DNA of 24,528 nt, taken from the NCBI GenBank assembly GCA_013152165.1, contig JAADGY010000061.1, positions 1 to 24,528 on the forward strand, read 5' to 3'. Of this stretch, positions 3,947 to 7,081 are shown one piece after another. Origin of the DNA: a bacterium. Lineage in GTDB: Bacteria > Patescibacteriota > Microgenomatia > JAADGY01. Positions within the stretch are counted from its first letter, which is position 1, and every line of letters begins with the position of its first letter. The notes under the pieces are model-generated. The model saw only the letters and a program-made list of their open reading frames with translations, did not search any database and was not told the origin of the DNA. The position numbers and the translations under genes were made by a program.

Positions 3947-4052
3947 TTAAAAAGGGGACGATCGAGGCTATTACTAATGAAAGGATCATGAGGATAGCGG
4001 TTAAAAGGACGAAGGTTTTGATGATGGCTTTTCTTTTGATTTTAAGCTTCAT
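3936..4052 (-). CDS. Small single-pass membrane protein, 38 aa, not in ORF track
   Basis: MKLKIKRKAIIKTFVLLTAILMILSLVIASIVPFLNGF*: basic N-terminus plus hydrophobic helix; start overlaps the tyrS stop and stop overlaps the recG start. Confidence 0.7.
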   Translation of the reverse strand: MKLKIKRKAIIKTFVLLTAILMILSLVIASIVPFLNGF

Positions 4053-5262
4053 GGGTGGTTTTGATTTGGAAAAAAAGCAGTTTGCCAAGCCGGACGACGA
4101 TCGGAGCGGCAGTTTTGTCCAAGGTAATGACTTGGTTGGGGTTGGTAACCGGTTGCTGATTTATTTTAACAGCTTTTTGGCTTATCAGGTTTTTAATCTG
4201 GCGGGAGGATAAATTGGATGGCAGTTTTTTGAGCAGGTTGATAAGGCTGTATCGGCCGGGGGGCAGTTTAACAACGGTTAGGTTTTGGGGCAGTTGGTTT
4301 TTTTGGAAGACTTGTTCGAACTCCAGCTGGGCCCTTTCAGCTTCGTCTTGGCCATGCAGCCAAGCAGTGAGGTCAAAGGCTAAGCGTTTTTTGGCTTCCA
4401 TGGGGTTTAGCCGGCCGGATTTGATGTCGCTGTCAAGTTGATCGAGTTGGGATTGGGGCAGGTTAGTTAAAAGCTCGAACCAGCTAATGATTAGTTCATC
4501 GTTAAGGCGCATGGTTTTGCCGTAAACGTCCTTTGGTGAATCGGTTAGGGAGATGTAGTTTTGGCAAGTTTTGCTCATTTTACGGCCGTCCAAACCAAGA
4601 AGCAGGGGTATGGTAAGGACGTATTTTTGTTTGTTTTTGAGTTTTTTCATAAGAGTTCGGCCGGCCAGCATATTAAAGGTTTGGTCGGTGCCGCCGATTT
4701 CTAGGTCAACATCCATAGCTACCGAGTCATAGCCTTGCATTAAAGGATAGAAGAATTCATGAAGGTGAATCGGCTTGTTGGCTTTGAGGCGCTGTTGGAA
4801 CATGTCCCTTTCTATCATCTGCTGAACGGTGAAATGACTGGCCAGTTTAACGACGTCTTCGAAGTTTAGTTTAGCCAGCCAAGTGTGGTTGTATTTGATT
4901 TTGACTTTAGAAAAATCAAGGATTTTGCCGGCTTGGCGTTTGTAGTCGGCCATGTTTTGTTTGATTTGATCGAAGGTTAGCGGCTGTCTGGCTTGGTCTT
5001 TGCCGGTCGGATCGCCGATCATGCCGGTAAAGGTGCCCAAAAGAAGGATGACTTCATGGCCTAGGTCGGCGAATTGTTGGAGTTTGCGCAAGGCTAGGCT
5101 GTGGCCTAGGTGGAGTTCGAAACCGGTTGGATCAACGCCTAGATAAAGCCGGATTTTTTTACCGGAGGCAAGCAGTTTTTTTAGTTCTTCTTTTGAAGGC
5201 AGAACTTCGGCCACGCCTCTGTTTAGGACTTGATCGATGGTTTTTTCATCGGTGGCAACCAT
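4042..5262 (-). CDS. tyrS: Tyrosine--tRNA ligase
   Basis: YLGVDPTGFELHLGH (HIGH), QGYDSVAM..GGTDQTFN, KMSKT, C-terminal S4-like domain. Confidence 0.97.
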   Translation of the reverse strand: MVATDEKTIDQVLNRGVAEVLPSKEELKKLLASGKKIRLYLGVDPTGFELHLGHSLALRKLQQFADLGHEVILLLGTFTGMIGDPTGKDQARQPLTFDQIKQNMADYKRQAGKILDFSKVKIKYNHTWLAKLNFEDVVKLASHFTVQQMIERDMFQQRLKANKPIHLHEFFYPLMQGYDSVAMDVDLEIGGTDQTFNMLAGRTLMKKLKNKQKYVLTIPLLLGLDGRKMSKTCQNYISLTDSPKDVYGKTMRLNDELIISWFELLTNLPQSQLDQLDSDIKSGRLNPMEAKKRLAFDLTAWLHGQDEAERAQLEFEQVFQKNQLPQNLTVVKLPPGRYSLINLLKKLPSNLSSRQIKNLISQKAVKINQQPVTNPNQVITLDKTAAPIVVRLGKLLFFQIKTTHEA

Positions 5263-5297: not shown

Positions 5298-5365
5298 TCC
5301 TTAGTGCCTTTTTATAAGCAAGTGTTTTATAGGCGAAGTAAGCTGGTTTGATAGAATAAATGGTT

Positions 5366-6736
5366 ATGAGAGAGCAAAAAACAGTGTCGATTATTGGGTT
5401 TGGGCGGTTTGGGCAAACGCTTTATCGTTTGATTAAGGATGATTTTGAGGAGATTATTGTCTACCGGCGCAGTGGGATAAGAAAAAGAGAGTTTAGTTTG
5501 GGCTCCCATGTCAAAGTAGCCAGGGATGTTAAAGAGGTGTTTAAGAGCAGGTTTGAGGGCGGGTTCCATACGCTGTTTTACTGCACGCCGATTTCAACTT
5601 TCGGCCAGGTGATTAAAGAGCATATGAAGTATTTTGATGACAGGCATGTCATTATGGACGTGTTGTCGGTGAAAAAATGGCCTGAGGAGGTGTTGAGCAA
5701 GCATTTAAAGGATGGCCGAGTTCAAGCCATATTAAACCATCCGATGTTTGGGCCGGACAGCAGCAAGGATGGTTTTAGAGGCTTGCCGTGGGTGATGGAC
5801 AGGTTTAGGTCTAAAGATCAAGCGTATCGATTTTGGAAAAGTTATTTTGAGTCGAAAGGTTTGCGGGTGGTGGAGCTGACGGCCAAGGAGCATGATCGTT
5901 TAGCGGCTTTTTCACAGGGGGTGGCCCATTTTGTTGGGCGGTTATTAGCTGAGTTTGGAATGGAGCCGACGGTGATTGACACGGTGGGAGCCCGAAAATT
6001 AAGGGAGGTGATGGAACAAACGGTGAACGACAGCTGGCAGTTGTTTCTAGATTTGCAGAGATTTAACCCTTATACCAAGCAGATGCGGATTAAGTTGGGA
6101 GAAGCGTACGATAAACTGTTTCATCAGTTGCTGCCTGAGCAAGTTAAGCCGGGAGAGGTTGTGTTTGGGATTCAAGGCGGTCGGGGAAGCTTTAACGAGG
6201 AGGCCTTGATGGATTATATCCGGCGGCATGGAGTTGGCAGCTGGGGCGTGAAGTATTTGTACACAACTGAAAGAGTCTTGAAGGCTTTATGGGAGGGAGA
6301 GGTGGATTACGGCTTGTTTGCGATCCAGAACGCCAACGGCGGGGTGGTGGAAGAGTCGATAACAGCGATGGCCAAATACAAGTTTCGGATAAAGGAAAGA
6401 TTTGGAATTCAGATTAGGCATTTTTTAATGAAAAGGCCGGAGGTGGAGGCAAGCAAAATAAAAGCGGTTATGGCCCATCCCCAGGTTTTTAAGCAGTGCC
6501 GGAAAAACTTAAGTTTGAAATATCCGCGATTAAAGCAGATTGCAGGCAGGGGGGAGTTAATTGATACAGCCAAGGCCGCGGAGGCTTTGGCGGGGGGCAA
6601 GATCGATGCAGATACCGCCATTTTGGGGCCAAAAGTTTTAAGCGATTTGTATGATTTAGGGATAATTGAGGGAAATTTACAAGATAGTGATGATAATGTA
6701 ACTGATTTTTTGATGGTAGAGCGCTTGTTTAGGTAA
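5366..6736 (+). CDS. TyrA-family (prephenate/arogenate) dehydrogenase fused to a prephenate/arogenate dehydratase catalytic domain without ACT
   Basis: N-domain IIGFGRFG, NHPMFGP, EHDRLAAFSQ; C-domain GIQGGRGSFNEEA, IQNANGGVV, HPQVFKQC, NVTDF. Start 5366 preferred (8 nt after TAGAAT); 5360 is the alternative. Confidence 0.85.
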   Translation: MREQKTVSIIGFGRFGQTLYRLIKDDFEEIIVYRRSGIRKREFSLGSHVKVARDVKEVFKSRFEGGFHTLFYCTPISTFGQVIKEHMKYFDDRHVIMDVLSVKKWPEEVLSKHLKDGRVQAILNHPMFGPDSSKDGFRGLPWVMDRFRSKDQAYRFWKSYFESKGLRVVELTAKEHDRLAAFSQGVAHFVGRLLAEFGMEPTVIDTVGARKLREVMEQTVNDSWQLFLDLQRFNPYTKQMRIKLGEAYDKLFHQLLPEQVKPGEVVFGIQGGRGSFNEEALMDYIRRHGVGSWGVKYLYTTERVLKALWEGEVDYGLFAIQNANGGVVEESITAMAKYKFRIKERFGIQIRHFLMKRPEVEASKIKAVMAHPQVFKQCRKNLSLKYPRLKQIAGRGELIDTAKAAEALAGGKIDADTAILGPKVLSDLYDLGIIEGNLQDSDDNVTDFLMVERLFR

Positions 6737-7081
6737 TTAAACTTGGCCTCGGACAATATGGTGGAGGGTAATGCTTTTAGGTTTGAATATTTGTTTAAGG
6801 CGATTGAAGATGGGTTTAATGTCAAAGTTGGGAGTGCAGGTGTAGATGTCAAAGGAGATAAAGTTGTGCTCTGGCCAAGTATGAACGGCGAAATGAGACT
6901 CCTTTAGGATGGCCACGATTGATTCACCATGAGGAGCGAAGCGGCAGCCGGTCATTTTAATAATCGTCAATCCTTCTGCGTGGCAGGTTTGTTTGATGAT
7001 TTGCCGAAGCCGGCGGTAGGTTAGGTTGTGCTTAATTTGATAGAAGTCTAGGGTGAAGAGCTGGCCAAGTTGTTTTTTCAT
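6737..7081 (-). CDS. speD: Pyruvoyl-dependent S-adenosylmethionine decarboxylase proenzyme family (class 1b)
   Basis: Self-cleavage motif E|SH followed by HTWPE and DIYTC; 114 aa; substrate not certain. Confidence 0.85.
   Translation of the reverse strand: MKKQLGQLFTLDFYQIKHNLTYRRLRQIIKQTCHAEGLTIIKMTGCRFAPHGESIVAILKESHFAVHTWPEHNFISFDIYTCTPNFDIKPIFNRLKQIFKPKSITLHHIVRGQV

Follow-up and report, generated by a model that had tools for sequence, protein, structure and literature searches.

The window analysed here, that is, the whole stretch of 24,528 nucleotides of contig JAADGY010000061.1 (assembly GCA_013152165.1; Patescibacteriota, Microgenomatia, JAADGY01), carries a forward-strand gene whose product joins a plant-type TyrA (arogenate/prephenate dehydrogenase) to the catalytic domain of a prephenate/arogenate dehydratase (PDT) lacking an ACT domain. 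A first-pass annotation, made from the sequence alone, had read this gene as one polypeptide holding the enzymes of both the tyrosine and the phenylalanine branches. The gene structure bears this out, as the frame 5360-6736 is open throughout, with no internal stop codon or frameshift, and Pfam finds both PDH_N and PDT in its product. A reading as two genes, or as a gene broken by a frameshift, was rejected on the strength of this single frame and of an architecture common to hundreds of orthologues. The features of the gene are listed below, with residues numbered according to the 458-residue frame:

5360 to 6736, forward strand: TyrA-PDT fusion gene from the list of open reading frames (458 aa, coordinates including the stop codon)
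5369 to 6136, forward strand: plant-type arogenate/prephenate dehydrogenase (TyrA) domain, residues 4-259 (phmmer, Foldseek)
5396 to 5413, forward strand: Rossmann dinucleotide-binding motif G13-F-G-R-F-G18
5459 to 5473, forward strand: end of strand beta-2, V34-Y-R-R-S38 (alignment to 5T95)
5666 to 5668, forward strand: Ser103, in DVLSVK
5738 to 5740, forward strand: His127, in HPMFGPDS, the conserved TyrA active-site histidine
6029 to 6031, forward strand: Asp224, equivalent to soybean position 222, the arogenate-specificity determinant
6155 to 6733, forward strand: ACT-less prephenate/arogenate dehydratase (PDT) catalytic domain, residues 266-458 (Pfam, phmmer, Foldseek, tree)
6701 to 6709, forward strand: T448-D449-F450, counterpart of the PDT 'TRF' triad

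The N-terminal half was recognized by PDH_N (PF02153) at residues 70-171 (E 2e-11; 44 bits against a cut-off of 26.5), and its best match in the Protein Data Bank by phmmer was soybean PDH1 (5T95/5T9E), which aligned with residues 8-259 (E 1e-29). An AlphaFold2 model of the fusion, built with 47 homologues, reached a mean pLDDT of 92.8 and a pTM of 0.79; when the predicted model was compared with soybean PDH1, Foldseek gave a TM score (target) of 0.92 and an rmsd of 2.0 Å. The TyrA half of the homologues also carries a precomputed match to PF26213 (TYRAAT1_C). The peptides on which the plant-type assignment had originally been based were all confirmed, namely IIGFGRFGQ (11-19), VYRRS (34-38), HPMFGPDSSKDGFRGLPWV (127-145), EHDRLAAFSQ (177-186), QTVNDSWQLF (220-229) and NPY (236-238). 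The protein thus shares with the plant enzyme its fold, its Rossmann motif and the conserved serine and histidine, but it is only 28-29% identical to it and is fused at its C-terminus to a dehydratase.

Residue conservation, computed over 149 full-length members of the fusion family, singled out S103, H127, D179, R194 and D224 as near-invariant positions of the TyrA half. Within the Rossmann motif G13, G15, R16, F17 and G18 are invariant. Ser103, which occupies a position that we take to be catalytic in TyrA enzymes, aligned with the conserved serine of soybean PDH1 and is a serine in 147 of the members; His127 fell on the soybean HPMFGP segment and is a histidine in 148. Alignment to both the wild-type and the N222D/M219T soybean PDH1 placed Asp224 at position 222, in agreement with the first-pass annotation, and Thr221 at position 219; an aspartate is found at the former position in 148/149 members. 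In plant and bacterial TyrA enzymes an acidic residue at 222 contacts the arogenate amine and confers arogenate specificity, and D-to-N mutants at this position gain prephenate activity (PMC5681985). The beta-2 end, as had also been pointed out, is devoid of acidic residues, with 'RRS' lying on soybean 'SRS' and R37-S38 on the soybean R-S, whereas residue 36 varies in the family (N in 60, D in 46 and R in 8 members). This sequence suggests a preference for NADP+. An acidic 222 is shared with plant TyrAa and its bacterial clade-I relatives, and the R-S after beta-2 is as in the NADP+-using plant enzymes. All the sequence marks of a plant-type, arogenate-class TyrA are therefore present: the PDH_N match, the similarity to a solved plant TyrA, the GxGxxG, Ser and His, and the acidic 222.

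The assignment of the C-terminal half as a PDT domain also stands. Pfam PDT (PF00800) matched residues 270-455 (E 4e-33; 115 bits against a cut-off of 25.2) over positions 2-178 of the 181 in the profile; phmmer aligned this half with the solved enzymes 6VH5, 2QMX and 3MWB, and Foldseek matched the catalytic part of the same structures. NCBIfam returned for the fusion only prephenate dehydrogenase and prephenate dehydratase models, all under their full-length equivalog cut-offs, as expected because the protein is a fusion. No ACT or CM_2 domain was detected by Pfam in the protein, which ends 8 residues beyond NVTDF (446-450), as the first-pass annotation had described. Truncations of the Escherichia coli P-protein are reported to show that a PDT domain by itself can be active in the absence of ACT. 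The near-invariant positions of this half comprise GIQGG-GSFN, N324, GG-V-ES, H373, Q379-C380, D402, Q441-D442, N446, T448 and F450. With PheA/ADT enzymes (2QMX, 6VH5, 3MWB) it shares the PDT catalytic fold, the GSF-N, N-GG-V-ES, H-Q-QC and QD-N motifs, and the Thr and Phe of TRF; it differs from them in being fused without ACT, in the replacement of the Arg by Asp (by Ser or Thr in most of the clade) and in belonging to a separate clade.

The reading TDF for TRF had been noticed at the outset, and it is indeed present on the aligned T-R-F of the solved enzymes (NVTRF, NITRF or AVTRF), so that the conserved triad is broken by Asp in place of Arg while Thr and Phe are kept. It is not, however, a private oddity of this protein, as the whole ACT-less clade lacks the Arg. 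Thr and Phe are each found in 148/149 fusions, and the middle residue is S in 74, T in 52, D in 7, N in 4 and R in none. Stand-alone ACT-less PDTs (~190-215 aa) have T-S/T-F almost throughout, the single exception found being a 204-aa protein of genome G091 (L024) that keeps the R. Fusions and stand-alone ACT-less PDTs form one clade (SH-aLRT 98), apart from the ACT-bearing TRF/TKF PDTs.

The view of the fusion as a curiosity of its lineage had to be abandoned. More than 1000 homologue clusters (90% identity) are collinear with the query at 98-100% coverage and 53-76% identity, and a pattern scan across species, with one genome for each, detected relatives in at least 584 species genomes from several phyla. 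According to record titles, the Patescibacteria among them include Levy-, Roizman-, Davies-, Woese- and Dojkabacteria, Saccharimonadales, Gracili- and Peribacteria, and the other carriers include Dormibacterota, Melainabacteria/Obscuribacterales and the cultured Elusimicrobium posterum Dip510; the members outside Patescibacteria have the same Asp, T-S-F and short tail. Databases label the homologues 'prephenate/arogenate dehydrogenase family protein' or 'hypothetical'.

Normally the gene stands at the end of a complete shikimate operon. On long contigs the order is DAHPS-aroB-aroA-aroK-aroE-aroD-aroC-CM_2-aminotransferase-fusion, often followed by tyrS, and the full operon was present within 10 kb in ~30 of the 80 best species loci. 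In full operons a 4-bp overlap joins the class I/II aminotransferase gene to the fusion; L041/L042 have instead a class IV aminotransferase at the operon head, in G205 (L032) and G133 (L033) a class-Ib-like aspartate aminotransferase adjoins the fusion, and in some other genomes a BCAT-like aminotransferase does. These aminotransferase classes are said to include known prephenate aminotransferases, reportedly from the work of Graindorge et al. and Dornfeld et al., both of 2014. In G205, G420, G416 and Elusimicrobium posterum no gene other than the fusion exceeds the curated cut-off for PF00800 or for PF02153. Since chorismate mutase and the aminotransferase are encoded directly upstream, the 222 site holds Asp and no other TyrA or PDT gene is present, the operon family suggests a route from chorismate through prephenate and arogenate to tyrosine and phenylalanine, with the fusion performing both last steps. 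In two of the Patescibacteria, L032 (G205) and L033 (G133), entry into the pathway is of archaeal type, with 2-amino-3,7-dideoxy-D-threo-hept-6-ulosonate (ADH) synthase and DHQ synthase II and not DAHPS/aroB.

This customary position, at the end of a shikimate operon and after chorismate mutase and an aminotransferase, was not found in the present genome, where the gene lies alone between tyrS and speD. The assembly (745.8 kb in 100 contigs, 92% complete) was searched with tblastn using 34 proteins from four related operons: DAHPS, ADH synthase, DHQS-II, aroB/D/E/K/A/C, chorismate mutase, AspAT, BCAT-like, trpA-G, tkt and tal. The only strong matches were the fusion itself and tyrS; the 30 aro, trp, aminotransferase and chorismate mutase queries gave no pathway match, other than a weak trpG-like glutamine-amidotransferase match on contig C15. 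A Pfam search of the whole assembly likewise returned no aroC, CM_2, Aminotran_1_2, Aminotran_4 or ACT. The first-pass annotation had remarked that the window contained no chorismate mutase gene; none was found in the whole assembly either, and the search of the genome for aro genes that it had called for was equally negative. Because the genes for the pathway, chorismate mutase and aminotransferases were not found and the fusion is placed among housekeeping genes, it is an orphan in this genome.

The orphan state is recurrent. In a sample of 400 genomes of the phylum, aroC was detected in 31. Nine of the sampled genomes, this one included, encode a full-length fusion, and five of these lack aroC; the same five are also devoid of aroB, as judged by tblastn for G000 and by PF01761 for G021, G213, G043 and G025. 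CM_2 is retained in G043 and G025, and in the latter a BCAT-like gene abuts the fusion. Among 27 further small genomes in which the fusion has no aroC nearby, 17 have no aroC in the whole assembly, while aroC was found in the control genomes (E. posterum, an Obscuribacterales and a Dormibacterota). The aroC-less state costs 17 changes on the fusion tree, a count that rests on a gene tree and on genomes that are mostly metagenome-assembled, the completeness of the 27-genome set not being reported. Genomes with a listed completeness of 98-100% (G213, G043) are among those with an orphan fusion.

Having orphan enzymes of the Phe/Tyr branches seems to be characteristic of the phylum in general. 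In the same 400-genome sample, aroC was absent from 23 of the 39 genomes with any TyrA or PDT homologue, and these 23 include carriers of ordinary ACT-bearing PDTs (e.g. G356, G247 and G317) and of stand-alone ACT-less PDTs (G337, G143). A module of DAHPS, chorismate mutase, aminotransferase and fusion, in some cases with tyrS, recurs in genomes without any chorismate synthase (L059, L060, L072, L124); in a variant from G043 (L035:9298-12128) the fusion is followed by DAHPS and then by chorismate mutase, and no aminotransferase was detected. Such modules keep the entry and exit steps of the pathway without its middle.

Together, these data lead us to propose, with a probability of roughly 60%, that the fusion is a bifunctional arogenate dehydrogenase/dehydratase that turns an acquired intermediate into tyrosine and phenylalanine. 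The N-terminal half would carry out the oxidative decarboxylation of arogenate to tyrosine, probably with NADP+, and from arogenate (or prephenate) the PDT-fold half would produce phenylalanine (or phenylpyruvate); the enzyme has no feedback (ACT) domain and would be unregulated. The upstream pathway would have been lost, and an intermediate from a host or neighbour would feed the formation of both amino acids. The use of a scavenged intermediate, already suggested by the first-pass annotation, is the leading interpretation because neither chorismate mutase nor any of the shikimate genes looked for is present in the genome. Of the possible intermediates arogenate fits best, since both products would then be amino acids and no aminotransferase would be necessary; in a genome where no aminotransferase was found, only arogenate would give amino acids directly.

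A different explanation is that the fusion is a decaying relic, which lost its function along with the pathway and has merely not yet been inactivated or deleted. Two observations are in line with it. A DAHPS-like gene, retained between tyrS and the fusion in the lineages of the relatives P0002 and P0005, is already deleted in the window, and at the syntenic rplT-tyrS locus of three near relatives from the same TyrRS clade the fusion is missing. As these three have lost the fusion from a syntenic locus, it must be dispensable in some lineages. Against a relic, the reading frame is intact and all alignment columns that are at least 95% conserved in the family, including every family-invariant residue, are kept in the window copy. 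The closest orthologue, P0002, is encoded on a contig syntenic with the window (L039, GCA_054030155.1) and is 76% identical; between the two, pN was 0.147 and pS 0.77, values that we report without a numeric dN/dS because synonymous sites were saturated in every pair. For this genome pair the identity of the fusion (0.758) is close to that of the essential TyrRS (0.751), and the identity of the window gene to the outgroup P0005 (0.636) lies within the range of three sister sequences (0.635-0.639), so that no acceleration was seen. Furthermore, the orphan state is shared by no fewer than 17 other genomes, which are spread across the gene tree. The fusion has apparently been held under purifying selection after the loss of the pathway, and we consider a relic unlikely. 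In short, the gene is constrained where it is kept, yet some relatives manage without it.

With regard to the genes mentioned above, the DAHPS-like genes of the relatives (L039:8544-9386, reverse strand; L048:1385-2212, reverse strand) encode very divergent proteins of 275-280 aa, which score ~106-110 bits against a TIGR01361 cut-off of 268; the gene is intact in two lineages 64% apart. In fusion-less relatives (L049:6464-6994, L051:6464-6994) a LOG/LDcluster4-like gene lies directly upstream of tyrS, in the place that the fusion occupies in the window.

It is similarly improbable that the enzyme has been repurposed, in such a way that phenylalanine is no longer the product of the PDT-fold domain, nor perhaps tyrosine that of the TyrA domain, and that the protein performs instead a BacA-like non-aromatising decarboxylation of prephenate, a GqqA-like acylase reaction or ligand binding. 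The T-S/T/D-F of the clade in place of TRF, the missing ACT domain, the lack of a substrate source in the genome and the presence of the PDT-fold acylase GqqA (7AM0) among the fold matches would fit such a change. The prephenate decarboxylases BacA, AerD and SalX are likewise short, ACT-less, PDT-like proteins that act on prephenate; however, the operons of the fusion family point to ordinary synthesis of phenylalanine and tyrosine and not to a secondary-metabolite cluster. In genomes with the complete pathway the same type of domain is the only PDT homologue and is encoded directly after chorismate mutase and the aminotransferase, and the window copy deviates from those proteins at none of the columns that are at least 95% conserved. 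The sequence match to GqqA is weak (E 0.0036), and NCBIfam and Pfam return only PDT and PDH families, and NCBIfam scans of the C-terminal domain and of four stand-alone ACT-less PDTs gave PDT families alone. The suggestion of the first-pass annotation that the dehydratase domain might act as a sensor is unlikely too, because this domain is the only PDT homologue in complete-pathway genomes, among them the cultured Elusimicrobium posterum.

Finally, it is very unlikely that a shikimate operon for ordinary biosynthesis lies in the missing ~8% of the genome, even though the assembly is fragmented and incomplete, as genomes with the pathway have the operon adjoining the fusion while here it has tyrS and speD as neighbours with flanks of 5 kb and 18 kb, relatives as distant as 64% identity keep the detached arrangement, none of ~12 pathway and aminotransferase families was found, and orphans are known from the nearly complete G213 and G043. 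The constraint data, the fact that complete genomes have the fusion as their only such enzyme and the conservation of the detached gene order weaken all three alternatives.

Several points nevertheless weigh against a bifunctional enzyme supplied with an external intermediate. We know of no transporter or source for arogenate or prephenate, and our literature search retrieved no paper characterising the fusion family or its activity. The genome is only 92% complete, part of the constraint measured against P0002 could predate the loss of the pathway, and three near relatives live without the gene. In addition, the triad lacks the arginine that has been reported as critical for substrate binding and catalysis (PMC10845154).

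As a tentative extension of the proposed arogenate route, about which we are rather doubtful, Patescibacteria with small genomes might repeatedly drop chorismate synthesis and keep the fusion in order to use labile arogenate taken from their hosts, the Arg-less T-S/T/D-F domain being a dedicated arogenate dehydratase. If this were true, orphan copies would mark a previously unrecognised metabolic hand-off, in which one protein yields tyrosine and phenylalanine with no aminotransferase.

Branch-point enzymes joined in one polypeptide have precedents. The TyrA/PheA fusions described in the literature that we searched are the TyrA-AroQ-PheA-ACT proteins of Archaeoglobus fulgidus and Huberarchaea and the P- and T-proteins (PMC1173090, PMC11237513). 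The A. fulgidus protein resembles the present fusion in that it also joins TyrA to PheA. In contrast to the window fusion, it and the E. coli proteins contain a chorismate mutase, and their PheA part has an ACT domain; the fusion is free of both, and its TyrA belongs to the plant/arogenate type. Other architectures that combine the same two catalytic families were encountered among our sequences: TyrA-PDT-ACT (P0267), PDT-ACT-TyrA (P0205), PDT-TyrA-aminotransferase (P0183, 1040 aa) and CM-TyrA-PDT-ACT (P0255). Besides their varying domain order, these four differ from the fusion in having TRF (P0183, P0205, P0255) or TVF (P0267) and, in three of the four, an ACT match; the long PDT-first proteins, P0255 and P0267 lie outside the ACT-less clade. 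One further protein, P0262, consists of a proline dehydrogenase fused to an ACT-less PDT.

The proviso of the first-pass annotation, that the fusion might turn out to be common and already characterised, holds in its first part; as to the second, the literature search turned up nothing on TyrA-PDT fusions without ACT, on arogenate in bacteria of the candidate phyla or on a PDT clade devoid of the Arg. The fusion is accordingly ordinary in its distribution but uncharacterised in the literature, and its recurrent orphan state is the part worth testing. Both domain families are textbook material, and the combination of plant type, arogenate signature, and absence of ACT and Arg seems never to have been assayed, even though hundreds of species, a cultured Elusimicrobium among them, have no other candidate enzyme for the Tyr/Phe branches. 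Its study bears on how far the 'plant-like' arogenate route has spread in bacteria, on whether the TRF arginine is truly essential for dehydratase activity and on what ultra-small symbionts draw from their hosts. An orphan terminal enzyme under selection makes a concrete prediction that can be tested, namely the uptake and use of arogenate or prephenate.

The immediate surroundings of the gene comprise the following features:

5352 to 5357, forward strand: TAGAAT, a -10-like hexamer (direct sequence reading)
4042 to 5262, reverse strand: tyrS, tyrosyl-tRNA synthetase (Pfam tRNA-synt_1b and S4), divergent from the fusion
6737 to 7081, reverse strand: speD-like AdoMet decarboxylase gene, convergent with the fusion

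The frame contains an alternative ATG at 5366, which would give a protein of 456 aa. This is probably the true start, because it agrees with the database gene call for the contig (456 aa) and because the TAGAAT hexamer ends 8 nt ahead of it, compared with 2 nt ahead of the ATG at 5360; the position of the hexamer fits a leaderless transcript beginning at 5366.

A spacer of 97 bp separates tyrS from the fusion, and tyrS adjoins the fusion or its operon in the relatives L039, L041, L045, L046 and L048 as well. The two genes flanking the fusion stand amid housekeeping genes, and the order rnc-nusB-rpmF-recG-tyrS-fusion ... rplT-infC-thrS-xseA is common to the window, L039, L047 and L048. Since this synteny is shared with relatives and the GC content of the fusion is unremarkable, being equal to that of the rest of the window, a recent horizontal acquisition into this genome was rejected.

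On the downstream side, the stop codons of the fusion and of the speD-like gene abut, with a spacer of 0 and no room for a terminator between them. Among the database records with a Patescibacteria-type operon, many bear the title 'uncultured Gammaproteobacteria', 'Woesearchaeota archaeon', 'Methylomirabilota', 'Acidiferrales' or 'Kofleriaceae' (L052, L054, L056, L073, L080, L096 and others) and are probably mislabelled bins. The GC skew of the window (1-24528) is strongly positive in all 1-kb intervals (0.16 to 0.37), independently of gene direction and far above usual values.

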